Shown: in pieces, positions 1-35,272 of the stretch
Position numbering within the stretch: position 1 is the first letter of the stretch
How the letters are laid out: the number at the start of each line of letters is the position of its first letter
Origin: Yuukianura sp. NJ FZ-2021
Taxonomy: Eukaryota
Length of the DNA: 64,000 bases
Assembly (NCBI GenBank): GCA_046563655.1
Contig: CM102287.1
Coordinates: 5,580,001-5,644,000, forward strand
Direction: 5' to 3'
Notes under the pieces: model-generated
The model's database searches: none
Seen by the model: only the letters and a program-made list of their open reading frames with translations
Told to the model about the DNA's origin: nothing
Made by a program: the position numbers and the translations under genes

Positions 1-90
1 ATTTTCCTAAGCAAGAGAATTTGCCTTTGCCTACTGGCACAGTTTCACGGAATCCTCGGTCCAATTGGAAACTAAAATATGAATTTTTAG

Positions 91-2804
91 GTGACTGTAC
101 AATGGAATGGCTCCAGAGCATCAGTGGACGCATGTCACAAGATCCGAATGCCCATTACCCGGTGATTTTGGACGCTTCAGAAATCCAGTGCTCTCTGTCC
201 TTTGACCGTACGCTTGAAAACTTTTCTCATATCAAGGCTCCCCCAAGCCAGTTTCTGTGCAAATACGACAGCCACTGCTTCTCATCTTGTCATTGCTGCG
301 ACTTTGACGCCTGCGGTAAGTCTCAACTTTTACTATTTCTACAATTTTCCTACATTCAAAAACCTAACACAAAAACCTTAACGTTTCAAAATTATAACAA
401 GAAACACGTTTAACAAAATCCTGAAGAGTGAATACTGTTCGGATTGAAATGGTTAACTTAATCAAGACGACTAACTAAACATCACGTAGAGATGAATTTA
501 GACGTTTATTGAATTAAACACAAAATCTAACCCCTAACCTTAAAGAAATTAAACTTAACTTAACATTTCGTTTCACAGACTGCGAAATGAGTTGTCCCAA
601 GAACTGTTCCTGCTACCACGACCAAGGTTGGTCCACAAACGCCGTCGACTGCTCAATGTTAGAACAAACCCAAATTCCTGGACGGATTCCCATGGACGTC
701 ACTTCTCTATTCCTGGACGGAAACATTTTTCCGTCCTTGGATTCCCATGCCTTCATTGGACACAAGAACCTCAGAGCCCTCTACCTCAACGCATCTCACG
801 TCGAGGTCATTCAGAACCGCTCGTTCCACGGTCTCAAGCAACTCAGCATCCTCCACCTCGAAAACAACTTTATCGAGCGCCTCGACGGATTTGAATTTGA
901 CGAACTCGAGAATCTCGAAGAGCTTTACTTGCAACAAAACAGTATTTCATGGATTTCAAATCAAACTTTCGCGCCACTTCTGCGTCTGCGCGTCCTCTAC
1001 CTCCATGGAAACAACTTCGTGGACTTGCCAATTTGGTCTGTGACAACAGGCGTAGGTCGCCTGAGCAGAACTCTGACTGACCTCACCCTCAGGGGTAACG
1101 AGTGGTCCTGTGACTGTGGATTTACTACAACCATGAGGGAGTGGCTACTTGAAAATCGTGCCAAAATTAGTGACGTGAGCCAAATCCACTGTGTTGACCA
1201 AGTGCCCCCCTCCCCTTCACCGAATACTGCCAATTCCCCCAAGGACTCAGAAGGCGGAACAGACGTTGTCGTCGTTCGACTTTTGGACCAGAGAAACCAC
1301 CGCTGTTCATCTTCCACTGACCTCAGCGTTCTGGAACCCTCGACAAAAGAAAGTTCAACCTGGACAGACTACATTCCGCTCATTTCCGCCCTCGCTACTG
1401 CCCTACTTGTGTTCCTGATCGTCATGTCCATGTCGTTCTACTGGCGACAACCCCTACGCGTGTGGTTCTTTGCAAAATGTGGTGTTCGTTTGGCCTCCTG
1501 CCGAGAACCGATGGCTGAGAGGGACAAACTGTTTGACGCCTTCGTTTCGTACAGTTCCAAGGACGAAGCTTGGGTGAGACAAGTTTTGGCCACGGAATTG
1601 GAGCGACAAGATCCACCTTTTCGGTTGTGTCTTCGCTACAGAGATTTACCCACCGGTGGGACCTACTTGGCCGATACGATTGTCCAAGCATCGGAGGCAT
1701 CTCGTAGAACAGTATTAGTCCTCTCACATCACTTCCTCAAAGGTACGTCTCCTGAAAATTAACTAACCTTTTCTCAAGGTTCGTAAACAAAAAAAACTTT
1801 TTCCACATCAGGTTGTCCAATAACTTTTTTTCTTTCCAATAACAATTTCTGCCAAAAAATTTTCAAAAATGAAACATGTTAAAGTTCACCTGCATTTCTT
1901 TCACAATTTTTGACTTTTATATAGTTTTTTTTTTTATTATTATGCGATTTAGCATGAAAAAAAAATTGGGCAAAAAAGTAAAAACAAAATTAGGGGAAAA
2001 ATCGTTTGATGCAAGAATTTGAAAATCCCGAATTATTGGACAACCTGTTGTAGGAAAACAACTCGGTTGTCAAGGAACCTTGACTCTTCTCATTTCTCCG
2101 CATGATCTTGAATTTTTCGAAACAGGAAAAAAAATCTAGGATTTTTTTAAGAAGAATAATTTTAGAAAAACGAACGACATTGGATCAAGAAAAACTCCCA
2201 AAACATATTATAACCGACTTTCTTTTTCGAAACAGGCGAGTGGAGTCGAAGTGACGTCAAGTCTGCTCATCATTCAGTGCTCAAAGACCGAAATCGGAGA
2301 GTTGTGATTATCCTCCTCGGTGACCTCCCTTCAAAAGACCTTGACCCCGACATTCGACTCTACCTCAAACACCACACCTATATTAACTGTGACGACAAGC
2401 GATTCTGGGACAAACTGTTCTACGCTCTCCCAGACATCAAAGTGAAAGTGCCCATGTCAAGGTGCATTCACAGTCGTGGTAGTTCCAGGTCACACTCCCA
2501 CACCCTCCCCCACTACCAACCCCCTCAGTCAAGTGTCGAAGGTCAACAACCCCCACCCCTCCCCCAGAGCAACCCACCCCCTTCCGCCCCCCACCAGCAC
2601 TACCACCACATTCCTTCGTCTTCGCTCCACCATACACCCCCCTCTCGTCCCCCCACCACCATGATGTGCACAAACACTGGAAATACTCATACGCTCATTC
2701 CAGCCACCCACCACGGCCCCCCACTCCCTCCCCAGCGACTGCCCAGTGCCAGCGGTGGAACTAACAGTGCAAATCCAAATCGACATGTGGCCATCCATAT
2801 TTAG
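91..2804 (+). CDS. Tollo: Toll-like receptor, Tollo/Toll-8-like (long Toll clade); 3' part only, 5' exons lie left of the window
   Basis: Exons 91-315, 579-1742 and 2236-2804 are joined by phase-consistent GT-AG introns. The protein reads CDCTMEWLQ...HCFSSCHCCDFDAC|DCEMSCPKNCSCYHDQ (multiple-cysteine cluster of insect long Tolls), then LRRs, LRR-CT (NEWSCDC), a TM helix (YIPLISALATALLVFLIVMSMSF), a TIR domain (KLFDAFVSYSSKD...SRRTVLVLS...SAHHSVLKDRNRR...LDPDIRLYLK...FWDKLFYALP) and a Pro/His-rich tail. The family call is secure. The Tollo versus Toll-6 assignment rests on recalled TIR motifs. Confidence 0.9.
1809..2047. mobile_element. MITE-like element in a Toll intron
   Basis: Perfect 15-bp terminal inverted repeat CAGGTTGTCCAATAA (1809-1823) / TTATTGGACAACCTG (2033-2047). 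239 bp with an AT-rich interior. No direct target-site duplication seen. Confidence 0.65.
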
Positions 2805-5589
2805 GCTCAAAGTGGGGTCACACAATTAAACTCTCACCCCCTGGGGGGTCAATTTCAGCTCAGAACAGCGAAACGACACAAGGGAAAATGGAAAAAGCGA
2901 TTTTTCATAATTTATTGCCATTGTCTGTAACCCCTCCCGCTGCACCCAGGTCGCAGAACCAGCCGAGGTTTGAACTAAACCGCAGAAGAACCTCGCCTAA
3001 ACCGAATCTGTCATCATCCCCCTGTTGGACCAGAGCCATATGATTTGGGTTAGTGGCAAAGTGAACTAAACGGTTAATTAACCCTCTCTCTCAATTGTCT
3101 CCCCAGAGAGCCCACCATTTTTCTAAAAGTTATTACCAAAAATCCTAGCCTAACAACCGCACAACTCGCAAAAAAGCCAAAACGATCAGTCATACTTTGT
3201 ATCCCCTTAACTTAATATCTTTCTCCCTTGACACTCGTGTGAATAAGTCACAGGGATGAACACCACAAACATCATTTACCATTGTCACTATTGTAATACA
3301 ACCAGAGTTGACTCACAATTTTAATTTTTATTACCCTCAACTCTCGACCCCATTTTGTATTGTCCCGAAATCAAAATAAAAGCAGAAGATGAACCTTGTG
3401 AAGATAAGTATTGTCTGTTGCAGTTCACGTTAGGTTTAATGTCTCTCACAAAGATTGATTTTAGTAATAAGCCAAACACATCTGCTCGTCTCTGGATCTC
3501 AGCAGAGCGTCATTACATCCTGCTGAGACCACCATTTCCATCCATTTGTAATTTCCATCTAGATGCAAAACATTTTAGCACTTCAACTTTTACGATTAGG
3601 ACTCATAAATCATAACACATTTAACGTTGAAACAATAAAACAGGGTCATTTTCATAACACATTCCCGCATCTCTTCTCAAATGAAAGAGAAAGAGAGATA
3701 CTGTGAAAAGAGATTCATTTCAAATTCAAAATTGAATTTAACAAAAGAACTTGCATTCCTCTCTTCTGCATTCCCTTTCATTTCTCTCCGCTCTGTTCTC
3801 TGCTTTTTAGTTGCAAATAATAAAGTGAGAGTAAAGCAGAAAAGAGAATTTGGATCCAACAGCGCATGAAATGTGTCTCTCTACGTCTGTCCATATCCAT
3901 TTTGAACTCATCATCACCTGAGGACTTCACAGCGGATCTAATTGTAATTAATTGGACTGAGATTTGAAAGTGAGAATCTTCACACCTTCCACTAATTAAA
4001 TATCTACCAGTAATAGCATCTAAACTGAAGGAAGCAACAGGATACAAACCCAAACCGAGCTTTAAAAATTTCCTAGTGTAGCGAAAAATTGAAAATTTTC
4101 AGAATCATTTCAAAATTAAGACTTTCTTATTTATACGTAGAATTTATCTTCATTTTGAAAATAAGAATAAGAATCAGTTCAAGATTTTTTGAAAATCAAT
4201 TCTTACGCCATTCAAAAAATTTGTGAAAAGCGACACCACGGTTTCAATAAATTTTAGTTCGTGTGATAGCCCGCTTGTTTTAGAGACAGATTTTCTTAAA
4301 TACTAAATTTTTGAAAGTGTTCTCAAATTAAGTCAGAAGACACTAAAAAGTTGAGAAACAGTCGGCAGATGATTTGGAAATCCAATAAAAGATGTTACAT
4401 AACATACGACAAAGTTCTGAAGAACCGAGAGACAAGAACTTCTATTCATGCTCGTTGCCCCCACCTACTCTCAAGTTACATAATTTCTGGCACCCGAGGA
4501 TTTTTTTTCCCAAGCCAGCAAGCAATTTAGCTTTTCTTTCAGCTGCAATGTTCATCTTCAGTTTTAAGTCCGGGAGCAAAAGAAGAGGAAATTAGGAGGC
4601 GTTACACCATGCCTCAATGACACCGAAAAAGTTGACATCCGATGACTTCTCAGAACGAACAGAAAAAAAAGTTTCAAAATTCAAAGCTAATTTTCATCTT
4701 CAACTTCTTCCTAACCGCAACACGCCGCAAGGCTTGGAACGCTTCGGTGACTAAATTTCCAAATCATCCTAAAAATTTCATCACTTAAATTTTTTTTAGC
4801 TTGAACATGATCATAAAACGATCTCGTTTGAGCATGATTCATCTCCAGGTATTTCACTTGTCAACTTCAACTTTGAAGCAAGATCCTGCCAACTTACATT
4901 TGACAGATCCATCCTGAATCGTTCCTTAATTACTACTCTAACAAAATGGATTTAGAAAAAAACGAAAAAGTCAAGGTTGCTTGTCGGCGGCATCGTTCCA
5001 TTGTTCCAGTTTAACATTTAGTCCCAACTCCTTATGTAAAGAAACCCTGACAAGTAAAAGTAAAAACCAAAAAGTCCAGAAGAGCGTCTCTTTGGAAGTG
5101 ACATGCGACTTTTTCCATCTCACGAACAAAACAAAAGTAAAAACGACTTTGGAAAAAAGATTTTTGTTCCTTGAAGGAATAGGATAGACATCTCCGCCCA
5201 TTTCCTTAGACAAAAGCCCTTGTTCTTTCTAATGGAAATGAATGGTAAAGACTAAAGAAAAGCTACCAACCGAACTTCTTTGGGATTCAGACTTTTGGAA
5301 TTGAATTGAAGAAAAACCAGAGATCCAAGTCAACACTCAATTATTCCAGTCGTCTCCAGGCAACCCCAAGGAGACAGAACAGATCCCAGTTACTCCCTCC
5401 ATCCATATCTTATTTGTAACAAAAGATTTAGAGTAATGAGATGATAATGGACTGGGTACAAAAGGAGGCAAGATTCGGAATCAACTAGTAATTGTTCCTT
5501 CCCTTGTTCAACGGAATTCTACATTGTCTCTACACCCACACAATACAATCTTCACAATCTTCTTCAACTCCACCCTCCTCTTAAAAATA

Positions 5590-5800
5590 ACAATTAATCT
5601 TCAACAAAACAAAATTTACAAGAAATAAACAAAATTTATACAAAAAACAACAAAATTTAAACAAAACAACAACAAAAGTTTAAAAAAAATAAACAAAACC
5701 GGAAAAAGTAAATACCCTAACCTGAAAACCTAACGCAAAAGCAACAAAACAAATTCAAAAACAGAAAACGAAGAAATAAAATTACAAAAAGCAAATAACC
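5590..5800. repeat. A/C-rich low-complexity tract (degenerate AAAAC-type units)
   Basis: Runs such as caacaaaacaaaatttacaagaaataaacaaaatttatacaaaaaacaacaaaattt with almost no G. Confidence 0.6.
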
Positions 5801-8800
5801 TCACCTAACTTATAATTATCATAAAAACGCTTAAATTTTTTGAAAAAGAACAATTTCGGCAAAAATTGGCACAAAAAATTCCAAATTCCTGGAAATCGCA
5901 TCCAAATTCTTGCAGTCAGTCACACCCTCCAATTAAATCCAACAGCTATACACACATCCCATCAGTTGTGAAAAAAAAATTCGAATATAAAGTTCTGCAA
6001 ACATAAATTCGCACAGAAAATTCGCGAATAAAATCCCTATGTAATATAAATTCAGACAGGTAGAACAATGGAGTCTCGTTCCAGAGGGGGATGTAAAATT
6101 TGCATTTTGTAAAATAACATGGACATTTTGTACCTCAAATGAAAAGTCGTTTAATTTTATGAAGCCCAATTTAATCATAGACTAAAGCTGCTCTCCTACT
6201 CCCAAACACCAATTTTCTCTTTTATTTTCCTAATAAGAAACCTCGGCTTCCCTTGTTTTCTGGCTGACCAAAGTCTGTTCCAACTATAAGGATAATAGCT
6301 ATGGCTGTGCAAGAGATCATTACGACCTCTTTTTCCGTAGATGAAATTGTGCGATAACCAACTAATCACGGACTCTCCAACTCACGACTAATCATATCAG
6401 TTTCACTTCAACTTGCATTTGCTCAAATTTGCAAACCCTAGGCATAGCACTCGGAACAACCCTAATAATAGGGACCAAGTGCCCAATTTGTTATGACTCA
6501 TAACTCACATCCCTCCTTTGCAAAAATTCTGCACAAATATTAGTTGATGACACTCCATAAAATTTGGAATTTCGGCCGTTCAACTTTAAATGGATTGGAA
6601 ACAAAAATATAAAAAATTATAATAAAAAGTAAGTTTACCAGTCAAAAACAGCAATTTTACGTTACAAAAACATTTTTGCGCCGTTGTGCAAAACATTTTC
6701 ACATAAATAGGCTCAAAAGTGAGGTGTGTGTTCACCTTAAGCTAACCGGCAACGCTAACGCTGGAGTTAACATTGTCGCCAGAGACACTGCACTGCTCAC
6801 GCCAAAAGAAACACGAAAATGACCGGCCAAACGTCAGCGTCAACTTTAGTGCCACAAAAAGTAAAAATTAGTCAAGTCAGCGTTAAATTAACGTTAAGCT
6901 CGCAGTTACGTTAATATCATCCATGCTAAAGGAAGTCTAGTGGGACTTTAAACAGAAATCAAGAGTTACACAACTTTCCACCGTGGGGAAAACCAGCATT
7001 TCACACCCAATTAACGGATTAATTTCAAGAGCGGAATTCCACTTGAACGAAGCCTCACAGCAGCCTCCTTCAACTTCAACTTCCCCGGTGCACAAGAAAT
7101 AATACAGTTAAATGAAAAGTGACAAAACGTCAAAGTGAAGCCCACAGGTTCTCAAGTTGAAACAGAGGAGGGAGTAACTAATGTTAAGGTAAAAGCAAAA
7201 AAACGTTGATTGAGCATAACCCCTCTCCATTCCTTCATATCCACTTGGACAGAATCTCTCACTGATCTTATTTTTTCTCCTTCCAAAAAGTCTAGAGGAT
7301 GAGTCGACTTCTTTTCAATTTTTTTCAAGTTATTTTCCTCTCTGTGTGATGATAAATTAAACGAATCTTGCACACATAATAATTTTCCAATGGAATGATT
7401 CAAATAATTGCTCTCAGGTTTTTCATGCTTCCCCTTCTTCTTCTCTCCTTTCAGTCAATCTTCTATGACAGGAGAGGCCAAGGAGCATGAATTCCCCGTT
7501 TCAAAAGAAACAACGTTTCTTTCCCCTCTCTTTTGTTTCAAATTCAACATCAAAAAGATGTATGAGTCCGTGGAAATCCTGGAACACCGGTGGAGCAGTT
7601 ACCTTTCGCTGGAAATTTAATTTCATCAACTCAACCGAGTTAGCTACACACCAAACTCCTCAACTAAATTGCCTACACACGCCAAATTCCTCAACAAAAT
7701 CTCACACACAAGCCAAATTCTTTCATGGCTTGGCAAATTTCCGCAAAATCTCACACTCGCAAAACTTAAAATCTATTGCGCAAAATTCGTCAACAAAGAA
7801 TAGCACAAAAACCAAAATGAGCCACTTTCTCCAGTATGACAAGTTTACTCTACATTTAAAAAAACATTCACTTAAGGTTATGTTTAGGTTTTTTGTGCGT
7901 TTGTTTTTGGTGTTTACGTAAGTTGGTGCCTAGCTAACTCATTCTACCCCTAGTAATTTGCAGGAAGAGATAGAACCCTTCACAGTCTAGGTTGAAGATG
8001 CATCACCTAACAAGTGAATCTCTCCATTAAAGTCCTCCAGGAATCCCTTGATTCTAGGTATATCCATCTTAAATTACTCTTGTAAAATATTTAAAACTTT
8101 ATCTTGAGAACAAGAACCAGAGAATCCATCCCACACTACAATCTTTATTCTTCCCAAAGTCAAGAATTCTGCAACCACTTTTCATTCCCTTGCCACTCAA
8201 CATCCCCACCTCATCCTTTATCTTCCCATCTTATTTCTTATACCCTCAAACAATGCAACTCTACCATAAAAACAAATTATAAACACACTGCACTCCTGTT
8301 CAAATAAATTCAACTCACAAATAATTCTGCACAAAAATTAAAAACAAAACTTTTCGTCGCTTTCTCTACTGGAAAACATCCGAATCCTCAGGTGATCTAA
8401 AAAAAAAGTTCAAAATTTCCATAAGTTTCTCCCGAAGTGATTTTCATTGGCGTCAAATCCCAGCAATTATTTTGCAAAAGTAAAGATACTTTACAGTAGA
8501 ACCTAAGCAATATGAACAAAGCAGAGTATCCAGTTTCAAACATTTTGAAAATTTTTGAAATAAATTCCGCGGGCACAGCCATTTTGAAACCAATGCTGAA
8601 TTCCACAAAGGCCGCAGAAGCCAGAGTAACAACAAGATGTGAAGAATAGCAAAGACCAAAGTGTTGTCTGAGTAAATAAGACTGTTTTCCCTGCAAAAGG
8701 AACTTTTGACGTTGGTTTTGTATCTTGGGGGCTAATTAGAAGAATGAAGGATTGGCTCATCATCTTCTTCCGCCGCAGGGACTCCCACCATGAATCAAAC

Positions 8801-11800
8801 CTCTAACTTCTTAACCGTAGGAACAACTCCAACTTTTGCCAAGTTCCAATGTTAAACTCCTCCGAACTTCAACCCCGTCTCACCGGATCCACCAAGAAGC
8901 TGTCAACAGAAACCCAAATCATAAAAAAACAAAGAACCACCTTCCAACCCCTTCCAATCTACATGTAGATTTTATAATTAAAAAATACGCTCAAACAAAC
9001 CGATTCAGAATTCAACTCAACTTCCGACCGCCTTCTGCTTCCTCTTCTTAAACAAAAATGGAAATGACGTTTCAAATTCCCAAATTCCGCAACTTTTTCG
9101 CTTTTCGTCCGGCAAAACATTTTTGGAACTTAAAAACGAAGATTTTGAGGTTGAATTTGAGATAAAACACAAGCATCGTATTGGTGAGACACGCTGTACC
9201 GTTGAAATTTTTACGATTTGGAACAAATTCCCAAACTCCAAATCATGTCCAATTTAAGTCAAACCTATAACATTTTTACTGCCAATTTGAAAATTAGCCG
9301 TTAAATGTTAAACATCATTGGAAACAAGGCGAAAGCAAAGATGTTGAAACTCAAATCCCAAAACAATGGAAGGTGGTTGGTTTGTGATGATCTAGTTAAA
9401 ATCTGCGTGTGATTTATAGCACTTTCACAAACGTTTCATTTTATTATTGGTCCATAATCAAAATGGTGCCGAATATGCACAAAACTTATTCTTCCCAAAA
9501 CTTAATCACATCCCCATCTCCTTAACATTAGCCAGAAAACTTTCATTTTACAATTAACTTTTCCTTTTCTGATCGTGACAGGTTAGGAATTAGGGGATAA
9601 GAAGTTAAACCATATTTTCACTTCCAATTTTGTGTTACTTTACGTTTTGATTGAGATTCTAATTATACCGTATGAAAATACATGCTCAATTTCAGATCCT
9701 GATCTGATCCTTCTACTCACAAATACTCCTGACTCACCTTCCAAATTCCAAATCAAACTCAAATTCATTCCAAAACATTGATCAAAAACCTAACATTGGA
9801 CAGACACCGAAGTGATTATAGGCTTCAGCACAAGCTAACTTCAGTGGAAGGTTAAATTTTCCAAGACAAAAGAGGACATGAATACCTCCTCAACGCCTCA
9901 TCTTATTTTCCTCCTTTCAAAAATGGTGAAAATTCGTAATAATTTATTCAGAGAAGCATTCCGACCATCAAGAAATCGAACTCAAAGTTGAAAACAACTC
10001 ACAAAACCAACCCACTGACAGCTCACTCTTCACTCACTTTTTAACAAAATCTTTATCAGATTCTTAGTAACAAAAAAAAATCCTCTGAACAATATTATTA
10101 CTCACCGCACCGCGTACTTTTTATATTAACAAACAAAATTCTCCACTTCAAAATCAAATCCTCCTCATTTTACATTATAAAAATTCAAAAAGCCTTTTCC
10201 ACCAATCTAAAATTAAAATCTGACTCAAAAATGTTTCATAAGGTACAACGTTTTGTAAAGAAAAAAAAATGAAATCGCTGTTTCGCAATGCTTTCGTCGT
10301 GTAGTTTACAAATGTGACAGAGATTGAACCAAGAAAGAAAACGGAGAACTCAGGAAATTACAAATGTCAAATTTGTTGGCATTTTGTCGCAATTTTTTAT
10401 TCTTTTTGGCATTTCTGACATTTCTTTGCATTTTCTGCCTTATGTTACACAAAAATTGCATCTGAAGTTTACCAAAAATGCTATGCACCAGTGTTAAAAA
10501 AAATTCTGCCATTTAGATTACACATAAATAGGTTTGCTATTTGGTGTTCCAAAAAATTTTCGCAATCAACTATTACATGGCATTTGAAAAGTATTAATTT
10601 TCCGTCACTTCCATGCCAAACATTTTAAATTCCTCTTTGAATCGCGTCGCTTTAGTTCCAAAAAGTTGTGTTTGCGTCACGGGCATCTAAAACTCAAAGC
10701 TCAAATCAAATGAAGCTCAAATCACCAAAAACAAAAGATCGCGTCATTTGTTCATGAAAAATTAAAATTAAGTACTGTGACAGTCCATTTAATTCCGGAA
10801 TCAAAACGAACTTTGAGATGGAAGTTGTAAATTAAACGACTATAGTGAGGCCTCCTCTGACAATGACTCACAGCAGACAAAAATGACACTGAAGAATGTG
10901 TTGGACCAAAAATTAAAAATGAATGAGTAATTTATTAAGTGAAATGGAGACCAGCTCCTGCTCATCTCGTTAATAAGTCATTTGACGGCAAGTTGACTAC
11001 CACCCAAGTCACTCCGCCATTTGTACACAATTCTACGACATCTTTAGACTTCACAGGCACATTCAAAGATGCTGAAGATGCCTTCGCCAAGGCCAAAAGG
11101 CCCTACCTGAGCGAGAGACACGCCTTTCTTCTCAATTAATATTCTGTCTCATGTACAAACTAACAGCCTAAGTTTTCTAAAAGATGAGGAATCTTGGAAA
11201 AACTGAACCTGTCCAGCCACCAACAGCCTCCAACAGATCAAGTTACACATTTCCATTTCCTATCTACACCAAAAACCCATTTAAAACTGAAACTGCAACT
11301 AACTTTGTAACAGAGAACTTAAATCCTCGTTCCACGTTTTACCCAGTTCCAAAAACTTAACAAAACCAATCAATCAAAAAACTACTACTTTTTCTTTCTT
11401 CTTTTTTTCAAAATTTTTTTTGTCTAAGCTTTTTTTCTAAAATTGATTCCCATAATCCCATGACATCCAGAACAGTAAGAACCAAGAGGATTTTCATCCC
11501 TGTCTCGAAAAACTTTCACTCTCAAAACTTTTTCTCAAAGCCTGACATACAGAACTTTCACTTTCAAACTTTGCTCGTAGTAGCCCATAAAATAGCAACT
11601 TCATCGCACCATAGAACTTGGACATTGACGATGAACAGCAAACTTAAGCAAGTTGAAAAATTGAAAAGCGAGATCATTCAATTCACAAAACCATTTCAAT
11701 GTTCTAAGAATTTCAACACTTAGCGTATCTCCGGTGACATTTTAAGGCATTCAATTCAATCAAAAAATTTTCATGTCGGTACTTTATGTGAAAAATTTTT

Positions 11801-14800: not shown

Positions 14801-15564
14801 TTCTCCGCAAAATTCCACTCACAACAACAATTCCATAGTCAAAAGTTGTTAACGATTTGACAGCGATCTCCCAGAAGTCATCTGTTCAGAAATCTTTTGT
14901 CCTCATGAAATGAAACTTGAAATTCGACCAGGAATTTGCAACACAACAAGAAGCCATCAACAAGCCATAATCTTGAAAGAAATGTTTCAGTTCCCACTTC
15001 CAAGTGCGATTCCAACACTCTCCCTTAAATTTTATTATAACAAGGTCCGAAAGTCTTAATTAATAAAATCTTCTGAGCTATATACTCTGGGATATGAAAG
15101 ATTCAGGGCGGTAGAATCCTCACGATAAAACTCAAAAGTTAAGATCCTCTGATACTCTTTTCCTGCAGTATTTCCTATCTTCCTCATGTTCTTCATTAGT
15201 ATTTCTCCATAGCCTAACAAGACGAGAAAACAAACTGATCAAAACCTTTTTTTCAAAATGAGTTTTACCACCTATAAAAAGTAAAATGCGTTTTATGACC
15301 CGAAACAATTCCACTTCTTCGCAAAGGCCAAAGACTCTCCGTCCAAGACTTTTTAGCAGCCTCCAGCATTGCGTTGCCATGGAAACAACCTGTTTCCAGT
15401 CCTTCCGATCTTATCCAACAATCTAAATTGTCCTTCCAATTAAAACTTTACAGCCCATGGACCAAGGCTCTACTCAGCACATTCCGAACATCCCTCTCCA
15501 AAACTCTACCCATAAAAACTGAGTAATTAAATTCTCAATTAATTCAAAAAGTAGGCGAAAAATA

Positions 15565-16275
15565 ATGGGCGCCTGTACGGTAAGTCCTAAAGTTACGACT
15601 TGCCAAAAACCACAACGTTCCCACTCACACCTTATCTTGTCGCAAATTTTAATTTTCACACAAAAGTACCCTGTTGTTGCGAAAAGTGAAATTTCGCGCT
15701 TACTTTGCAAACATTTCAGCACTATCCTGTTTTTAATCTACCCTAATTTTAGGTACACACTTTTCATTTTTCCTAAAATTCTCCCGGGAATTTTTTCTCT
15801 CGAGTGAAATTTTTTACCAAAAAAATAATTTTTCTCCCATTTCCAGAGCTTCCACCTTCCTCGAATCCGGAAACTGGACAGAAACCGCCGGAAATCGCCT
15901 GTCCTTCCTGCCAAACTGAACTTTCTGTCCAAGTATTTCCCACAGTATTTTCCTAACAATCGTCCAGAAAAAGATGTCCTTCTGACAGCAATGGAACAGG
16001 AGTCAGAGGAACTTCTCACGACTTGTCGGTTCCAATTCGAGGACGACCTGGACAGCGTCAGTCAAGAGGAGTCGTTGACCGCTGCAGACGCAGCGATGGA
16101 CGAGCCATTGACCATTTCCACGATGGACGACGCTTCAACCTCTGTTCAAATCTCTCTGTCCAACCCGCACTACCGTGAGCCTCTGCGCCTGCGTAGAGTT
16201 TCTTGCAGCGGCGACTCGGAGCCTACACTTCATTACCGAAATACGACTGACAGCCTGCTCGAAGCATTCGAGTAA
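15565..16275 (+). CDS. Two-exon orphan gene; predicted 147-aa N-myristoylated/palmitoylated, largely disordered protein
   Basis: Exon 1 is ATG GGC GCC TGT ACG|gtaagt (15565-15579). The acceptor ttttctcccatttccag| ends at 15846. Exon 2 (15847-16275) is open and in frame with the 94-aa ORF at 15991. The product starts MGACTSFHLPRIRKLDRNRRKSP. The exon is a GC-richer island, and AATAAA signals follow at 16290, 16303, 16309 and 16313. Confidence 0.7.
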
Positions 16276-16289
16276 ATTAATACAAAGCT

Positions 16290-22600: not shown

Positions 22601-25600
22601 TCCTCCTGTCTTTTCATCAATCCATGTTACTTTTTTAAATTAATCGAGACTTGAATCAAGTAAAAATCTCGTTTGGCTCCGTTTAGTCCACGACTCCCTA
22701 TCGCTCCTTCCTAAAAAATCAACATGAAAACACTGCCCTCAAAATTAATGATGTGTCCAGGAAAAACAATGACTACTACTCTCCCAGTCTCTGGACATCT
22801 CACATACCTTATGCATCTTGGAAGTTATGAAAACTACTTCTTCAGTTTAGTCCTTACGCCATCATGTCAGTCATATCTGCCAAAATCTAAAACAAAAACC
22901 ACCAACGGACATTCTCAACTGACGACGCAAGACGTCAATTCCGTCAAACCAGCATGGAACCCAGTAAAGACAGCAGCGCAGAAGTGTGCGTCTTCCGTTT
23001 ATTCTCAAACCAGCACGAGACAAACTTAATCAAGCTCCTGCATCCTACACTTCACTTCTCAAAATCATCGACATCGTCAATCCTCAATTTTTTTAAAGCA
23101 TATTTGTTTTCGCGCTTTTTTCATTTTCGTATTTTGGTTCTAAAAAGTGCAACCACCCACCGCTGTGTCAATGAAAAGCAAACACCGGAACTCAAAACGA
23201 CACGGATTAAAGTTCAATTTTAAAAATCTAATCCAATTTGTACAACTATAATAGTGCAGCTTGGAAGTAACAATTACGCTGCTCGCCATTCCATGACATA
23301 ATCCTACCGTCCCCCGCCTAAATTTAAAAGTCAACTTTCAATTTCCACTTGTTCTGAACTCTGCATGTCACGCAAAGTCCTGCACTTCGCGAAACTCCAT
23401 ACTTTTCCATCAAAAACTTCAACTTTGCTACACCGTAGTAAAACGACTACTCTGTTTCAAAAACAAGTCAACTGGATTAAAACATAAGAACTCCATTTAG
23501 ACATAATAACTTCCATAGGTTATATAATACTTCCGTACATTATGTGCATTGCCATAGCGTATGTTAGGTTCGGTGCATGTAGTTACTTTCATAGCATTTA
23601 ATTTCACCTTTGTTTTTCCAAAAGTCAATGACTACTTAAATATACTATTTTTTTCGTCCTTGTTTTCTTTTACTACCTTTTACTTAACTAGATGAGAACA
23701 CGAAGGAAAAATCGAGCTCCGAAACGAGCTCACCTCCATCACGCTCCCTACTTTTTCAAACGAATCTTGATCGCAATGATCACGGAAAGGTGCAGGCAAA
23801 ACTATTATGCATTAGTCTTTGGAATTTCAAGAAATTAAACACGAACCAACGGGAGAGGGGTTAAAAAACAAAAGAAAAAAAAACTCAGGGATCGAAATTA
23901 ATACCAGTTACGTGTCCAAGTCTAAATAGAGGCAGAAGTTGTCTAGTCCGAGCTACAAAAGAATAACCTAACCTAAAAACAACAATATGAAAATAAAACA
24001 TAACAAAAACAATACAAGTATAAAAAGTTACAAAATTAATACTTTTTTTCAAATCCAAAATTATTCCAGTCTCTCCTCTAACGTAATCATTACACTTTCG
24101 AAAAAATTAGCCTCCAATCTTGTTCGTCTTCCTTGGTCTAAAATTACACCTCGTTACCAAAAAATCATGATTTCTTCCGATTTCGATTTTTTTTGAAAAT
24201 CCAAACCACTGCTGTCCGAAAACCATTGTTAAACCTCATCTCCTTTTCAATTATCCTCGTTAGACTTGAAGCGACGCTACGGAAAAGGGCGTGTACCTCA
24301 AGTCGAACACTGCCAAATTACTTTGGAAAAACAAAACTCTTTTCAACACTCCTCTCATTGCTCCAAATTGCGGAAAAAGTTTAGCAAGATAGGATCAGTC
24401 TCGACACCTTAAAAAGTCCTATAAACTTATATCCTGCTCCATTTCCAAAAAAAACTATCACTTTCATTATCCACACTTACTTTTCTCAACGTAGTTAAAC
24501 TTTTACACGCAAGAATATAGTTGGAAACAATTAACCCTTCCAGAAATTTATGTCTTCACGTTTCACCCGCTACCAAAAAACATACAAACGGAAAGCACCA
24601 TTCACTCTCAAAAACCACCCTTAACCTAACCACTATTTACATTTGCACAAAAACTTTTCAACAAACCGAAAACAATTTTTTAGCAAGTTGCTCCAAAAGG
24701 TGCGAAACTAAACAACATTTTCAATTCTCTTGTTTTCGTGCAGCCTTTTTAGCCTTCATGTTTTCATTTTCAAAATACTAGTAAATTATTTAGCACAATT
24801 TCGCTTGTCTGCTTATTTTCTCCATACTACAAACGTACAATAACAAACGTATTCAACTTCTCATTGGCGCCCCACGACAATTACTTTTGCAAACAAACCT
24901 TCCACTATTATATCACTAACAACAATCCTTTTTCATTTAGTCGACCTAGTTCACCCAAGTACACACACGGGATGAAACGAGGTGCTAACGCTAATAAGTC
25001 CGACGATGTAACAATTTGTGCTTGTTCACAATTTGCGCTGCACAAATATTTGTCTTTTCCATTGACTCCAAATAGTCCAAAGAATGTTTCTCGTTTAGTA
25101 TGAATGAACGCATCGATGCGATCTTTTTCTTCCATCTTATTATGATCTTCCCAGATTATAAAACATGACTCTGACAGAACAGCAAGCCAAAAAGTTTAGT
25201 TCAAGAGCAAACTTTATACAGCCTCTAAATCTCTTCCAAAGCTGAAAGGATCATCAACTCCTTCAGGTTATAAAAGTATCTCAAGAAGAACACAAAGTTT
25301 ACTTTTTTCAAAAAAGCTCACATGAAATTTGGCCCGAGTTTCTACCTTTGTCTCTATTTATGCATCGCCTTCACAAAAAACAAAACAAAAAAAAACTTTT
25401 ACTTCCACACGTCTAATGAAAAGTAAATGGAAAATAAATCTTATTTTCAGCCAACACAAGAACATCATAAAGTCCATTCAAAACCACCATCAACACTTCT
25501 TCAAACTTTTTATTTTTCGAATCTCCTCGAAAATTTCAAATTCCAAAAAAAATTGAGTTCCAAAGTTATTTCAAGGTTAGAAAAACCGGCTTTCGGCTCA

Positions 25601-28600
25601 TGCTCAATTTCCAATCCCCATCATCATTTATCCTCTTCTGGAAGATCCAAAAAAGTTCCCTGCCGTCACTTAGACACTTTCCAACGGATTAATCAATCAA
25701 ATCACACTTCCAAAATTAAATATACACATTCTTCTAGGTCCAACAAAAGCCTCAAATCCGACGGAACCAATCCGCTTAGTTTCATTTTCATTTCATCATG
25801 TCTCTTCCCTTTGTTTCTCTTATATCTCTCCAACTGGCGTGACAAATTAAACGTCAGATTTAAGTCGTCCCCATTTAAAGGCTTGACCTCAAGGGCCCTC
25901 TCCTAAACCCTTCGTCTAGCCTATTAATAAGGCACTTCCAGGTGAGAAAGGACCACACCTCTCTCCATGCTATTGCCAGTATCATTCCATTACCCAAATT
26001 AAAACTTAGAGGAACAACGGTGTCGGCAAAAGACAGAAAGGCACAATGACACGCTCAGCAAGGAGGACGCCATTCCAAGTTAGTATCTTCGAAAACCGAA
26101 TTTCTTCAACACAAAAAAGTCTCATCATCAACAGCACGCGAACAAACCACCAAAGATTCCTAAACCTCAAGAAACAATTCGGCATGGTTCTCATCTAACA
26201 AATGAAACGGCAGAATAATTCACGGTAATGAAAATGATAAAACACAAGAATCATTCTTAGCTCAAATTCAATTTCAGACAAAAATCAAATTCAATTTTAG
26301 AATTTTCGGTTTCTCAGCAGCGCGTCTTCGGCAAATTCAAAGCAGCAGGGTCACTTTCCTTCAAGATACTGCGCATACCATCAATAAAAATATCCTCATT
26401 GCACAAAAAGCAAACCAGCATTAAAAACAAAACCTAAAATTGCAAGTTCAGATTTTCAGTGTTCTCAAACATGAACTAAATACTAGAATCCTGAAATTAG
26501 TCAAGCTCCAACTTAAATTACTTTATGCCGGCATGATACTTTGCAAAAAAAAAATGAGAAGATGCCGCCAATAAATACGTCCAGTTCCCTTCTTTCAATT
26601 TCACTGTCAGTGACCATTTCACTTTCAAGTGAAAAATTTCAAGTGACCATTGTCACGACTGAGCCTTGTAATAGATGGAACAATAAAAAGTGAAGTGAAG
26701 CTAGTGAAAAATAATAAGTCCATTTCCTTATGACCTGACAAGAATGAGTCAGAGTCATGAGAACTGAGAAAGAGATCGATTGATAAGTCCAAGCACTTAT
26801 GTAATGAACGATACCGCCAAATGGATTATGGTCCAGATACAAACGTCAAACTACATCCTCCATTATACTGTCTCCATTTGACCATCACCAGATCTAAAAA
26901 TCTTCTAAAAAATTAGCTTCTGATCATGGGAAGGACAATCAAATCCGAATTCCTCCAGTCTTAAATGTCCTCCTTCCAACACCACAAAGTTCACCGCCGT
27001 CGCTGTCACATTTCTCAAGTCCACTTGAAGTTCAAACGTCTTTTTAAAATATCACAATTACTCTGCCGTACAAAAATAATAATACAAAATCTAGCCTAAC
27101 ACTGCTCTCATCTCAAGTTTCACGGAATCAAAAAACGTCCTTCCATACAATAACCCTAATAATTTGAAAACTAAGACCGCATTGTTTACGAATAACCTAA
27201 GAATACTAAAAATATCGTCTGCATAGGCTTCCATTATTACTCATGTTCCAATCGGCAATTCTAGACTTTTTTTTAAAAAGAAGAAGTTTTAAAAGAAGAT
27301 TTTTTTTAAACTTGCCAAGCTAACTCGCTTATGCCCAGGGGGCAGGGAGTGAAAGTGACGAAATGAGAAAACGCTTGCTTGTTCAGTCCGAGAGTAATTT
27401 ATTGCGTGGTGAGATAGGAAGATTTTCAAAAGGTTTTTGATTAAATGGGATTCAGGAGAGAAGAAGCGTAGGAGTTGTAGACAATGGATTCTGATCTTTG
27501 ACTTCATTTCAATCCTTCGAGCCAACTCCTGTCACAAATTCAAATCCATCATCCTTTTCCACAGTCAAACTGTCAAAGTCAACTCACAAAAGTTCAAAAT
27601 CCCTCAGAAATCTGCCGCTCACAGAGATCTATCACAAATATTTCAGAGATCTCGGAAACTTTAAACCCTAAAAAATGTGGAGCACAGTTTCCGTCGTTTT
27701 CAAACAAAAGTTTTTACTTTTGTTTCAGTCAAAGCTCTCCTACTGACCCAGGAATGAAAAAACAAAGTCTAAACCTTTCCTCCTGTCAATTTGAAAATGA
27801 CAAACAAGAACAAATAAGTCCAACTTTGAAAAACTGAATCTCTACATCTCTCAATTTTCCCCCCATAAACAGACCAAACCGCATCTGCACTTTGGAAAAA
27901 AATATTAAAAATTCCAGTTTTTTTCATGTACCAGTTCAAATTAATACAAAACCTCCGCCTCCGCATTTCAAAGCGGCCTTTACAACAAAACAACTTGGAA
28001 GTTCCCATTCTTTCATCCATCGTCGTCATTCTCCATATTAGGGTGATTTCAATCTCATAAAAACCAACCAACCAAACCCATCTTCCAGCTTCTGTCTCTC
28101 TTTACAATGACATCATTTTTCTCCATCCAGTTGACAAAAATGGTTCAAAATTCTTTTTAAAAAATACAAAAGCCAAGCTGTACAATGCATCACAAGAGGT
28201 CCAAATACTCCCAATTATTCTGCATCTCCTCATCTCAAATGTCTGTCAACACTAAAAAGGAAGCCGCAGATGCAACGAAATACACGAAGATGAAACTTTA
28301 TGTCACTAAATTCTCTTCATCATGCACAAAATCCGACATAAATTGAATAAAATTTAACTCAAAAAAGGTAAATTTAGTCACAAAAATCAAAATTCTTCTT
28401 TTATGATTTCTCCTTTAACAAAACAGGAAACCTTTGTCAATTCCTCCAGCCCACATTTCATCACCATAAAAGTCGAAATTCTCGATTTTTTTCAGTTGCA
28501 AAAATTACGAGATCCAGCTCCTGTATGTGCTAAAAACGAAACATTTTCTTCTGCAAATTATGAATTTTCGGTTCATTTTTTTAAAACCTTGGAATGAAAC

Positions 28601-31600
28601 CTTGAACAACCGAATTAAGAGCTTGAGGGAAACTTTGTGATATTTAGCACACGCAATTACTGATTTCTTTCCTCAAAAACAGGAGTTGTGTCAATCACTA
28701 CTTGATTCATGTGATTAACCCTGTCGAAAACATAATTAACGTCCTAAGTTGGCCTCAAAAACGGGCAAGAAAAGTGAGAGTTGTTCTAGAGATGAAATAT
28801 TATTGCATGATTAGCAAACTCAACCATCTTTCATCTTTTCCCTTAAGTAGATAGAGGGACTTAGGCCTACCAGGAACCTGTCTTCTGAGGAAGATGATGC
28901 TAAGGAAATTGCATAATCAGAACTCAAAGGAAGGAGGAAACTGTGAGTCAGGCGTCAGGAGGTATGACTGACAGTGAAGAAAGCACCGGAAGATTGAATA
29001 ATCACCAGAAGCAGGTTTACTATCCTTAATCAACAATCTCAAAAAGTCAAAACTCAAACAAGGGCATTTTTCCAAGAAAATTAAACCGAAAAAAAAAGTT
29101 TTACGAACAAAAAAAGTTTTGAAGAAACGAAGAAACCATAGGAAGAAGACAGCTTCTCATTACGTCTAATCAACTCAACATTTATGACTATAACACCACC
29201 AACATCTTCAACTTTTATGCACAAACCGTGCGAAAACAAACAAGGCAACTTTAAGAGCAAAAAGCCGTAAAAATTCTACCCACCTCCAGAAACAAAAAAA
29301 AATCAAAAAAATTCTTGTTATTAAAAACCTACCCCCGTCGTTAGTTGTTAAAACCCCAACAAAAGCGTTGTTCAAAGATGTTCCTCCTCTCTAGTTAGGA
29401 ATTTGAAAACCACCACAAAAACCAATTCTTGTCAAACTAAAAAACCCAAAGGAATTCAGGAATTTTCCAGGAAGCTGCCTTAGCACTTTCAAAAATTTGA
29501 AAAAAAAAGTTCCAAGTTCCTTTCTCTACATAAACTTTCCAATTTTATACTTCCTCGCTCCAGCATCCAGCAGCAGCCCTTGGAGGAGCCCTTAAAGAAA
29601 TCTCACACCTTATCTGGCCATGATCACTTAAAGATCACTGCACAGATTCTTTATTAGTCATGTTGGGAACCGCCTTTACAAAATTAAGGCTGACATTTCA
29701 TTCCACCTCTCATCTCTACAAATCTTGAAAGGATTCGAAATCTATTTTGAAATAACAAAAGACTTCCAAGTACTTCCAGCATCCAGCATTGCCAGCATCG
29801 CAGCCACTAATGAGACCAAATCCTCAACCCTTTCCTTTGAAGTCTGACTATTATTTACCTTCCAAAGGGCCTCAAGTTCCTTCACAAAGCCAAAACCTGA
29901 GCCAAATTCCTAATTATTGCACAGGGATTCCTTCCAGTGCAAAAGATTTCTGGCGGCAAAAACCGAATTCGGGAGAAATCTTTCGCTGAATTGTTTATAA
30001 GCCTCCCGGAGATCACAAAGTAGCAGAACAAAAAAAAAACAAGAAACGAACAGCAAACAACTAATCGTTCACTTTTTTCTGTTTTTGTTTGTTTTTCGCA
30101 CTCCAAAAAAATTTCATTACAAAAAATTTTCTAACTCAGCCTTTTTAGCAGAAGCCGGAATGTCAAAGTTTTTCAAACACAAAAATATCACAAAAAGACT
30201 TGTTTGAAAATCACTCACTGAAAATCTTTGAAAAAAAAACATTCAGAAAAATGTGTTTGACAAGAAAAAATTGGTTGAGAAATCTGCACTTTTTAGATGA
30301 TCATTCAAATGCTCGACAAATCTACGCCTGTCTCCAATACTATGTAACCTTTGTATAACAAAAAATTGAGCAAAATGATCATTAGTATTCGTAAGCAGAC
30401 TTGTTACAGCAAAACCAAAGGGAATTTGTAATACTTACAACAGTTTTTAGCAAAAAGTGAGATTGTAGAAAAAAAAAACGCAAAGGAAACGGGTATATAC
30501 CTAAAAAGTTCTCCATTATCCCATGTCATTTATCAACTTCAGTTTTAGTATCACTTTTTGCAATCTCTCCTCCCTTGTCCAAGTAGGCATGAATCCGCCT
30601 TCAGGAATCCATCATAAAATGTATTCCAAAAGGTACTTGTCCAACTTTTTATAAAAACAAGGCAAACGCTCTACAAAACGACTCTACTAAAAACACTCAA
30701 GCCGAAACTATTTTTCCAAAACACTTCCCTCTATTTTACTAATTCTTACAGTTTTTCAAACTATGTAGCTACGCAACATTTTTTGCATTTTTTTTTGCAA
30801 ATCCAAAAACAATGTTAAGCGTCATCCGAAAACGGTCCATCACTGAAAATTCTACTATTGCTAATAAAAACTATTGCTAAAACTCATTAGTTAAAACAAA
30901 TATAACAACCGCCCTTGACGCATGAGTAATCAAACTCGAAATAACTTGTCTGTGCCGTAATTTCAATTTGCTATTTGTTCATTTTAACAAAAATTTTGAA
31001 AAAAAAATCACTCAAAAACGTGGAATGGCTTGCGAATGTGGTGATGCATTTTCAAGACCACAAACGGTTGCCAAAATTCTAGATTTTGAGTAAGATATAA
31101 AACTCATTCTAAATTCTTCTTTTACAAGTGCAGTTAACTGACTTACATTAAACCAACTAGACAAACCACAAAACAATTGTCTTATTGGTTTGATTTATGA
31201 TCTTATTCAATTAGAAACTCAAAATAATAAATGGAATTGGTAACTTGGCCAAATTCATCTGTCTAACCATGCCTCTTCTGCCTCCTGTCCTGGCTTTAAT
31301 ATATTCCAACAGGCTGACAGGTGCTGTAAATCTGTTATTAAATCATCCTCGTTCCAAACAAAGTAAAAAAAAAACGAAATACAGTCCAACATCCTCGTTT
31401 GTTCCAACTAAAAATCCAACACCTTTCAAATTACCACGATCTCATCCTCTTACACCAACTTTCTTCTGCTGTCTATTAAATAGGTCTGACTTTAAAAACT
31501 AACTTATAAGTAGGAGGATAACAAGGTTCATGTTTGGAATCGAATAAGTGGAAAAGAAGAGTTGAATGCAGAATTAAGAATAGCTTTTGAAATAATAAAT

Positions 31601-32243
31601 TCAAAATCAAAAAGAAAAACTGTAGCCCTTACAAAACAAACCACCTTGTCGATAGAACCTAGTTAGGCACAACAACAAACTAATTGCTTCACCTCATTCA
31701 CTTTTGAGAAAATGGGAGACACGAATATTCTTTTGCTAGCCCTTACAACGCCTTTTCAAAAAAATATAATGATAGGGCATGGAAAAGTTAGAAAGAAACG
31801 AATTCCCGAAAGCCAATTTCCCTTGTTCATGCAATACAAAAATATACAAACAAGGTTCTCAAAAAAAAAGTACAGCCTGAATACAAAAGAAAGTTTGGTC
31901 ATTAAGTCCACACGGACGAACTTTGAGAATCATCTTGCTCCCTTTGCCTCATGCCCTGTTTGGAAATACTTCCAACACATACTTCCAAGTACTAGATTCC
32001 AACATATGACACCCACTCGGCACCCAACTAACACTTAATAATACGGTAGCCCTTTTGGAGCACCCTGTACTTAATTATTATTAAACCCAGATCTTGTTAT
32101 GCCGCATCTAGTTACAAACTAGGTTGAACGCCCAGTTCAACACCAATCTAAAAATACTGCCTTGTTAGTGGAAACAGGATAAGCACTTTGTGATTCTCGG
32201 AAAAAAGTACTTAGTAGTTAGTTAGCGCCAAGGAAGACGCCGT

Positions 32244-32269
32244 CTACTCTTGGTATCGCATAATTTCAA
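32244..32269 (-). CDS. Candidate short terminal exon of LSD1 (adds IEIMRYQE-stop)
   Basis: A strong acceptor on the minus strand (ctttgcttttgcttttgcag|) is phase-compatible with the a|gtaacc donor after NHLT and reaches TAG at 32246-32244. No transcript evidence. Confidence 0.35.
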
Positions 32270-32522
32270 CTGCAAAAGCAAAAGCAAAGCCATTTCAACT
32301 CTAACCTCAAACGGAAGGAAAAACAAAAAATGGAGCGTATAAAAGCATTTTGGGTTTTCAAAATCTTCATTTGGAAAACTGATTTTCTGAATTTCGTATT
32401 AAAATTGTAAATAAATGGCAAAAGGATGGCAGAATGAAAACTGGCGTTTTGATTTCCAGATGAAGACGTCCAAAAACTGCGAAGCATTTTTGCAAAAGCG
32501 GAATAAGGAAGGTTATGGTTAC

Positions 32523-35272
<2,750 letters not shown>

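Follow-up and report, generated by a model that had tools for sequence, protein, structure and literature searches.

The window analysed here, a 64,000-nt stretch of the genome of Yuukianura sp. NJ FZ-2021, contains on its minus strand an LSD1 gene whose catalytic half is missing. This raises the question of whether the gene is a truncated demethylase, one part of a split gene, or an intact gene that continues outside the window. We conclude that it is most probably an ordinary, single springtail LSD1/KDM1A orthologue, in which intron 11, longer than 32.5 kb, leaves the window on the left and the 3′ exons lie beyond, to be joined by cis-splicing.

The first-pass annotation described eleven tightly packed minus-strand exons separated by introns of about 70–160 bp, and we find the same arrangement. 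The ten introns measure 68–158 nt and are GT..AG in ten of ten cases, and a script check indicates that the frame is intact. The eleven exons, read and then script-checked, total 1813 nt, corresponding to 604 codons plus one base:

35272–34708, minus strand: exon 1, start codon at 35272–35270, poorly conserved acidic N-terminal region; spliced frame script-checked
34639–34500, minus strand: exon 2, SWIRM part 1 (Pfam SWIRM positions 4–36 of 84, E 2.6e-4; tblastn match; profile E 6e-17)
34401–34240, minus strand: exon 3, SWIRM part 2 (Pfam SWIRM positions 37–84 of 84, E 1e-10; profile E 9e-23)
34143–33945, minus strand: exon 4, FAD-binding Rossmann start of the amine-oxidase domain, GAGVAGL (Pfam Amino_oxidase positions 1–49 of 443, E 2.2e-19)
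33872–33754, minus strand: exon 5 (profile E 2e-13)
33681–33539, minus strand: exon 6, VPKEKDE...ALEWVIK (profile E 8e-26; tblastn match)
33434–33344, minus strand: exon 7, start of the Tower insert (profile E 2.4e-4; tblastn match)
33264–33094, minus strand: exon 8, Tower, placed by frame and splice sites (weak profile match, E 1.1)
33005–32932, minus strand: exon 9, Tower, placed by frame and splice sites (profile E 0.6)
32829–32787, minus strand: exon 10, 14 aa (tblastn 71–79% identity; profile E 0.003)
32628–32523, minus strand: exon 11, the last in the window (tblastn 83–91% identity, E 1e-14 to 1e-17)

The SWIRM domain (PF04433, positions 4–84 of 84 over exons 2 and 3) is complete, and the FAD-binding Rossmann start with its GxGxxG motif (PF01593) is present. 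The Tower insert and, after it, the conserved WDQDDDFEF...HLT segment follow, the former matched weakly in exons 7–9 (E 2.4e-4 to 1.1) and the latter at 71–91% identity in exons 10 and 11. The weak profile match of exon 8 is expected, since the coiled-coil region of the Tower is variable. Exon 4 is 74–91% identical to the listed arthropod LSD1s, while exon 5 carries about eight extra residues at its end relative to other springtails, with a second in-frame GT located 12 nt upstream (exon end 33766). The order of SWIRM, FAD-binding amine-oxidase start and Tower insert is common to animal LSD1/KDM1A, including human KDM1A and Drosophila Su(var)3-3, but the window holds the first 604 residues only, without the catalytic half.

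To locate that half, we searched the whole window by tblastn, using 14 LSD1 proteins (11 full-length LSD1s and three springtail sequences), and by profile HMM. Nowhere in the 64 kb did either method find an exon for the catalytic half, which carries the substrate pocket and the catalytic lysine. The tblastn matches outside the LSD1 gene all had E ≥ 0.1 and lacked conserved motifs, and when all six-frame ORFs of at least 12 aa (3322) were searched with a profile of 210 LSD1 C-terminal halves, the best E was about 1. As a positive control, we used a profile built from 129 sequences and covering the 400 residues that precede the junction; its top ten matches were exons 2–11, and eight of these, among them the 14-aa exon 10, had E ≤ 0.003. 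Three tblastn matches that the profile search did not recover were rejected as chance: 49709–49620 on the minus strand (E 0.1–0.36), which has no conserved motif and lies upstream of LSD1, and 24266–24361 (E 0.15–1.7) and 30729–30779 (E 1.4–4.5) on the plus strand. The first-pass annotation had found no exons for the remaining amine-oxidase part in the 32 kb beyond exon 11; both searches bear this out and extend it to the whole window, with tblastn placing the missing exons neither near 32523 nor elsewhere in the 64 kb.

The part of the gene that is present shows no sign of decay. Residues 192–604 are 68.6% identical to Allacma LSD1 and 65.3% identical to Orchesella LSD1, on par with the 67.6% identity between Allacma and Orchesella themselves. 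The identity of about 65% to Orchesella LSD1 (measured for O. dallaii) indicates that Orchesella represents another springtail lineage. In the comparison with tick, spider, insect and Daphnia LSD1s, the conserved region shows 57–63% identity, while the N-terminal 190 residues lack conservation relative to animal LSD1s; springtail LSD1s as a group diverge more than tick and non-dipteran insect LSD1s do among themselves. Judged by these comparisons, the 5′ half evolves at a normal springtail rate and is an orthologue, not a decaying paralogue. The intact frame, the uniformly GT..AG introns and the normal identity thus argue for an ordinary orthologue.

The way in which exon 11 ends suggests that an intron follows it. 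Specifically, the exon ends in ...FEFSGNHLT plus one base, A, in phase 1 (A/GTAACC, donor GT at 32522–32521). In the full-length springtail proteins P0077 and P0325, the junction residue is Ile, specified by an Axx codon (HLT-I-RNGYS), and the base A in the window fits. The ancestral junction, the GT donor, phase 1 and a base fitting the Ile codon all support the intron reading, although the donor (CCA/GTAACC) is not strong, which counts against a long intron.

Models from other springtails join the two halves at this same position. The Orchesella cincta genome model ODN03220.1 (P0325) is a full-length LSD1 of 868 aa, located on one 331-kb scaffold and joined at the HLT/I-RNGYS junction, which the Orchesella LSD1 models have in common with the window gene. 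In addition, two Logan contigs encode unbroken springtail LSD1s of 869 and 862 aa (P0077 and P0241). The LSD1 of O. dallaii is annotated as two models, CAL8103915 and CAL8103906, on one 2.3-Mb contig; the first breaks at HLT and ends two residues past it, as the frame in the window would run with the donor ignored. The comparison with the Orchesella species covered proteins, contig sizes and accession numbers. Two of the three springtail genome annotations are split (Allacma and O. dallaii), and that of O. cincta is full length.

The same break recurs across hexapods. In 21 of 80 listed junction-motif proteins from one search, the likeness to LSD1 ends right after HLT, and 54 of 120 listed proteins from a second search start at or just before RNGYS. 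The split models of Ischnura, Rhodnius, Apolygus, Nesidiocoris, Gryllus, Polyplax, Hypothenemus and Ranatra have a 5′ model ending at HLT and a 3′ model starting at RNGYS, and in all of these, including both Polyplax assemblies, as well as in O. dallaii, the halves lie on one contig, as judged by equal contig size. Where listed, the accession or locus-tag numbers of paired halves are 2 to 20 apart, corresponding to 1 to 19 numbered models between them on the assumption that accession numbers follow map order. In Cimex, the halves are on scaffolds of different size. Rhodnius is listed with one LSD1 5′ half and one 3′ half, and we infer that these are the two LSD1 copies of a preprint. Many hexapods have full-length RefSeq models (for example Tribolium, Schistocerca, Cloeon, Bemisia and Solenopsis), indicating that the junction is joined collinearly there. 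The hosted genes differ, being Toll-like in the window, while an older Dendroctonus 5′ model (P0038) runs into trypsin-domain sequence. The full-length O. cincta model, together with the same break in many hexapods and other models between the halves, argues for a long, cis-spliced intron.

The sequence to the left of exon 11 contains the following features:

1–32522, minus strand: proposed LSD1 intron 11, open at the left window edge; unique, non-repetitive and G/T-rich on the minus strand
about 3–315, 579–1742 and 2236–2804, plus strand: 3′ part of a Toll-like receptor gene, stop codon at 2802–2804 (Pfam LRR_8 E 1.4e-18, TIR E 2.3e-7; splice sites read)
15991–16275, plus strand: orphan ORF of 94 aa, GC 0.52 against about 0.36 in its surroundings, with an AATAAA cluster after the stop

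The Toll-like gene (3–2804) is convergent with LSD1 and, if 1–32522 is an intron, would lie inside that intron. The ORF at 15991–16275, which is probably the orphan gene of the first-pass annotation, had a single weak match, an RCC1-repeat protein, in a search of 1.84 billion representatives.

The 32 kb show a marked strand asymmetry, and the minus-strand G/T skew noted in the first reading of the sequence is real. The plus-strand GC skew lies between −0.155 and −0.372 in 16 of 16 two-kb intervals of 1–32000, as compared with −0.094 to +0.145 in 16 of 16 intervals of 32001–64000; C exceeds G and A exceeds T on the plus strand in every 2-kb interval from 1 to 32000. The skew continues, weakened but unchanged in sign, to about 35 kb, near the LSD1 start codon. 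On the minus strand, 2805–32522 has a GC skew of +0.23 and an AT skew of −0.10, matching in sign the short LSD1 introns on the sense strand (+0.10 and −0.135), and the Toll gene's own intron (1763–2213) also has the sign of the host. The skew rule is calibrated only on the short introns of the LSD1 gene, 937 nt in all. Exons of unc-5 are located at 62.3–63.5 kb, and since no upstream unc-5 exon was found, 54–62 kb could not serve as an intron for calibration. Repeats or transposons were rejected as the source of the skew, since no internal repeats were found in 1–32.5 kb and no Pfam domain in 22 tested ORFs of 2805–32522. The uniform minus-strand asymmetry is consistent with an LSD1 transcription unit running through 1–32522.

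Other possible marks of a long intron gave null results. A search for intron-hosted RNAs indicating the direction of transcription yielded no Rfam matches and no tRNAs. Allowing one mismatch, the search for recursive splice sites gave two in the window and none in 1–32522, with 1.3 expected by chance. Depletion of minus-strand poly(A) signals was not seen, with 22 AATAAA observed against 20.8 expected from composition. The last two results count against the long intron.

In the reading that we prefer, the intron after ...GNHLT would exceed 32.5 kb, more than 200 times the length of the other LSD1 introns, and would extend out of the window on the left. Further in that direction, on the minus strand, would come the exons encoding the catalytic, substrate-binding half of the amine-oxidase domain, and normal cis-splicing would join the two halves. 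On its opposite strand, the intron would host at least the 3′ part of the Toll-like gene and perhaps the small ORF. The first proposal of the first-pass annotation had been such an intron, longer than 32 kb and hosting the Toll gene; it is the best supported reading, by conservation, the O. cincta model, the recurrent break and the skew, and it stops short of proof in that the 3′ exons are placed by inference.

The first-pass annotation had also allowed for a split or trans-spliced gene or a misassembly, and both retain a low likelihood. A split gene, with its 5′ unit here, its 3′ unit elsewhere (on the other strand, upstream or on another chromosome) and its RNAs trans-spliced at HLT/RNGYS or otherwise joined non-collinearly, is unlikely. 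Such an arrangement would fit the absence of an acceptor from the window, the existence of full-length, mRNA-like springtail contigs beside genome annotations mostly split at the junction, and the two separate genes in many RefSeq annotations (for example Ischnura, Hetaerina, Rhodnius, Halyomorpha, Trichoplusia and Cephus). However, single, collinear models of full length exist for O. cincta and many further hexapods, the halves are on one contig wherever checkable except in Cimex, and the minus-strand asymmetry continues beyond exon 11 for 32 kb or more, in agreement with a long primary transcript that leads to a downstream acceptor. Insect genes of the mod(mdg4) and lola type, known to join exons from separate transcription units, are relevant to the split-gene reading only, and according to Kong et al. 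2015 (PMC4667647) no trans-splicing event other than that of mod(mdg4) is conserved across insect orders. LSD1, demethylase and amine-oxidase terms are absent from the available text passages and four supplements of that paper, whose tables may list gene ids only and whose filter dropped neighbouring same-strand genes, limiting its silence on LSD1. Unlike mod(mdg4) and lola, the window shows no separate 3′ unit, opposite-strand acceptor or alternative 3′ cassettes, and there are relatives with collinear full-length models. A literature search, thin on subscription journals, yielded no publication that deals with trans-splicing of LSD1 or with a split LSD1 gene in arthropods.

An assembly error, in which sequence left of about 32.5 kb was misjoined to exon 11 and the real intron is short, is very improbable. 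The composition does change sharply near 32 kb, as a misjoin would predict, but skew of the same sign is already found inside the exon cluster from about 35 kb, the boundary has no repeats or N runs, and the same long, gene-hosting gap separates the halves in independent assemblies of many hexapods.

It is scarcely credible that the gene is, as the first-pass annotation alternatively proposed, a truncated, catalytically dead LSD1 (SWIRM, first FAD part and Tower) that ends by read-through or polyadenylation after exon 11 and serves as a CoREST-binding scaffold or competitor: the lack of catalytic exons in 64 kb, a frame open for 87 more codons beyond the exon 11 donor and the isoforms ending after HLT that are annotated or read-assembled in other insects speak for it, but divergence is that of a normal orthologue without acceleration, other springtails make the full protein, and a gene that lost its 3′ half long ago is not expected to keep the ancestral junction, a phase 1 end and the GT donor. 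A minor truncated isoform beside full LSD1 is compatible with the long intron. Periplaneta isoform X1 and a Logan contig of a different species (89% identical) have a common 34-residue alternative tail after HLT.

We also consider it possible, albeit rather unlikely, that the LSD1 5′ unit is semi-independent in springtails and many hexapods, being trans-spliced to the catalytic half or regularly ending in the giant intron as a conserved, dead SWIRM–Tower competitor for CoREST. The alternative tail common to the two cockroach-lineage sequences hints at such an ending inside the intron; if true, the HLT/RNGYS break would be more than an annotation nuisance.

In the reading that we favour, that of an ordinary LSD1 with a giant intron, the gene would be cut by the edge of the window, not by evolution. 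A skew as sharp and uniform as that of the 32 kb may offer an inexpensive way of recognising, in this genome, transcription across what look like gene deserts. The wider pattern is of practical use: one conserved hexapod LSD1 intron is long and gene-filled enough that many annotations give the gene as two proteins, and the annotated halves can be mistaken for a truncated enzyme or for two paralogues.

The LSD1 (KDM1A) gene lies on the minus strand of the window, with its start codon at 35272 and eleven coding exons, the last of which ends at 32523. Spliced and translated by script, these exons yield 604 residues plus one base. All ten introns are short (68–158 nt) and bounded by GT..AG; the reading frame is free of frameshifts and stop codons, and every splice site is intact. 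Specifically, Pfam places a complete SWIRM domain across exons 2–3, and exon 4 matches the first 49 of 443 positions in its amine-oxidase profile; exons 7–9 are alignable to the Tower insert of LSD1 homologues, and exons 10–11 are 71–91% identical to the homologue segment that ends at the junction HLT|RNGYS. Exon 11 terminates with the T codon plus an A (phase 1), followed by GTAACC. The description of eleven packed minus-strand exons in the first-pass annotation is accurate, as judged by script splicing, Pfam and homologue alignment.

At the end of exon 5 (33754–33790, minus strand), the protein carries about eight residues more than other springtails, between CPLYESSG and VPKEKDE. Exon 5 has two in-frame GT donors 12 nt apart, giving an exon end at 33766 or 33754. 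In mammalian LSD1, this loop receives the neuron-specific 4-residue micro-exon, and alternative donor choice here could merit attention.

The catalytic half of LSD1 is absent from all 64 kb. A tblastn search with eleven full-length LSD1s (ticks, spiders, insects, a copepod and a shark) recovered the 5′ exons in the window and returned nothing credible for the last ~280 residues across the 64 kb, with no 3′ exons near 32523; three springtail LSD1 sequences likewise failed to find this half in the window. A profile HMM of 210 C-terminal halves gave a best E of ~1 against all 3322 six-frame ORFs with a length of 12 residues or more. A control profile covering the 400 residues preceding the junction (129 sequences) returned exons 2–11 as its top ten matches, eight of them at E ≤ 0.003, including the 14-residue exon 10, indicating that exons from the catalytic half, which is much better conserved, would have shown up. 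The first-pass report that the amine-oxidase exons are missing is thus borne out for the entire window by tblastn, profile HMM and control. The weak LSD1 matches, which fall on the minus strand at 49.7 kb and on the plus strand at 24.3 and 30.7 kb, had E of at least 0.1 and no conserved motifs, and were rejected.

Full-length LSD1 occurs in springtails. Two springtail Logan contigs, P0077 and P0241, encode uninterrupted proteins of 869 and 862 residues, and the Orchesella cincta annotation contains a single 868-residue model (ODN03220.1) on a 331-kb scaffold. The junction reads HLT-I-RNGYS in P0077 and the O. cincta model, and the Ile codon begins with A, in agreement with the phase-1 A at the end of exon 11. 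The annotation of its congener O. dallaii splits LSD1 into two proteins encoded on one 2.3-Mb contig, with accession numbers nine apart; the 5′ protein stops two residues past HLT, and the 3′ protein takes as its start an internal Met that directly follows RNGYSCVP.

The nearest LSD1 sequences among those retrieved are from springtails. Over residues 192–604, the window LSD1 is 68.6% identical to that of Allacma fusca and 65.3% to that of O. dallaii, values close to the 67.6% between these two springtails, so that the gene evolves as a normal orthologue. In the conserved 5′ region, springtail LSD1s are 52–66% identical to those of tick, spider, insect and Daphnia, whereas the range among tick, spider, Daphnia and non-dipteran insects is 69–82%; judged from these identities, LSD1 seems to evolve faster in springtails than in the other arthropods compared.

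Besides LSD1, the window contains the following features.

Genes and ORF in the window
1–2804, plus strand: Toll-like receptor gene, 3′ part, with LRR and TIR domains (stop codon 2802–2804)
15991–16275, plus strand: small acidic ORF of 94 codons (GC 0.52 against a background of 0.36)
40254–40673, plus strand: exon of a WD40-repeat gene
41124–44358, minus strand: formin (FH3, long poly-proline FH1, FH2)
62280–63849, plus strand: first exons of an unc-5 netrin receptor

A repeat region sits some 1.3 kb upstream of the LSD1 start; in it, a 176-bp satellite (12.2 copies, 36926–39074, 97% matches) is flanked by mutually inverted arrays of a 32-bp repeat (36633–36926 and 39119–39413, 82% identity), an arrangement resembling a foldback-type element built around a satellite core.

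To the left of exon 11, the 32 kb consists of unique sequence free of internal repeats; apart from the Toll-like gene and the small ORF on the plus strand, it has no Rfam or tRNA match, and no Pfam domain in any of 22 ORFs tested. On its coding strand, the Toll-like gene is very rich in C, and its final exon, coding for a Pro/His-rich tail, has a GC skew of −0.398. The ORF at 15991–16275 is directly followed by several AATAAA hexamers and has no credible homologue among 1.84 billion representatives; its sole match, to an RCC1-repeat protein, is weak (E 9e-6) and probably due to chance. Possibly, this ORF is a small gene specific to the lineage and located inside the proposed LSD1 intron.

The minus-strand G/T skew noted at first pass is real in both 2-kb and 500-base windows. 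In all sixteen 2-kb windows up to 32000, the plus strand has C over G (skew −0.155 to −0.372) and A over T, while the sixteen windows right of 32000 range from −0.094 to +0.145. In 500-base steps, the sign is negative from ~35 kb, near the start codon, and the skew is weaker over the exon cluster and interrupted at 32.5 kb. Read on the minus strand, the 32 kb has G over C (+0.23) and T over A, the sign also found in the short LSD1 introns on their sense strand (937 nt; +0.10 and −0.135). Furthermore, in the sign of its skew the second intron of the Toll-like gene follows the minus-strand domain around it, not its own sense strand. With a single gene for calibration, the skew would be a trace of minus-strand transcription that starts at the LSD1 promoter and crosses the entire 32 kb.

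Split LSD1 models recur across hexapods. Among the matches listed in our first search, 80 of 120 proteins contain the junction motif; 59 of these run on into RNGYS and 21 lack it, 20 of which terminate 2–65 residues later. One Dendroctonus model continues past the junction into unrelated sequence with a trypsin domain. Conversely, RNGYS occurs in 89 of the 120 short C-terminal-half proteins among the matches listed, at or near the N-terminus in 54, preceded by nothing or by unrelated residues. Among these C-terminal-half proteins are RefSeq models of Odonata, Orthoptera, Blattodea, Hemiptera, Coleoptera, Hymenoptera, Lepidoptera and Diptera. We compared species with both halves listed, judging contigs to be the same by equal size. 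The halves share a same-sized contig in O. dallaii, Ischnura, Rhodnius, both Polyplax assemblies, Apolygus (locus tags 019629/019612), Nesidiocoris (BES93562/BES93542), Hypothenemus (012284/012281), Ranatra (011243/011245) and Gryllus (GLH00623/GLH00618); Cimex is the exception, with scaffolds differing in length. If numbering follows map order, as we assume, the halves are separated by 1–19 further gene models. Single full-length RefSeq models exist in Tribolium, Schistocerca, Cloeon, Neocloeon, Bemisia, Solenopsis, Sitophilus, newer Dendroctonus isoforms and others, indicating that the junction is joined collinearly there. On the simplest reading, the LSD1 intron at this junction is long and filled with genes in hexapods, and prediction programs often split the gene at that point.

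The giant gene-hosting intron proposed at first pass is the best explanation: it is probable that LSD1 has an intron of >32.5 kb hosting the Toll-like gene, in keeping with the normal evolutionary rate, the collinear relatives and the skew, from which we infer the 3′ exons to lie past the window's left edge. Transcription would run leftwards from ~35.3 kb, the ten short introns would be removed, and the eleventh would be spliced across the opposite-strand Toll-like gene to exons encoding the substrate pocket and the catalytic lysine. Trans-splicing, or another non-collinear layout, would account for full-length mRNAs alongside split models, but is improbable given that O. cincta and many insects have collinear models, that the halves share contigs and that the transcription footprint is long. 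In the passages available of Kong et al. 2015 (PMC4667647), mod(mdg4) is described as the one case of trans-splicing that insect orders share; LSD1 is unmentioned in these passages and in a term search of four supplements, whose tables may carry gene ids only, and the filter used there discarded neighbouring same-strand genes. An assembly misjoin near exon 11 is very unlikely, and slighter still is the chance of a truncated, catalytically dead copy, the other first-pass proposal, which is at odds with the preserved junction, donor and evolutionary rate.

The LSD1 of the window is most likely a normal gene that continues past the left edge. In a Periplaneta americana LSD1-like isoform X1 and a Logan contig of a different species (P0079 and P0041; 89% identical), the catalytic half is swapped for a 34-residue tail after HLT. 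The tails, equal in length and ~45% identical, suggest at the sequence level a conserved alternative terminal exon within the long intron in the cockroach lineage, and a truncated isoform is possibly produced alongside the full one. Our literature search, thin on subscription journals, found no papers on split or trans-spliced arthropod LSD1. In the part of a preprint available to us (10.1101/598946), ‘two copies’ of LSD1 in four insects are taken as duplication; for Rhodnius, at least, the matches listed contain two LSD1 halves instead of duplicates. This recurrent break in LSD1 annotation is worth knowing.
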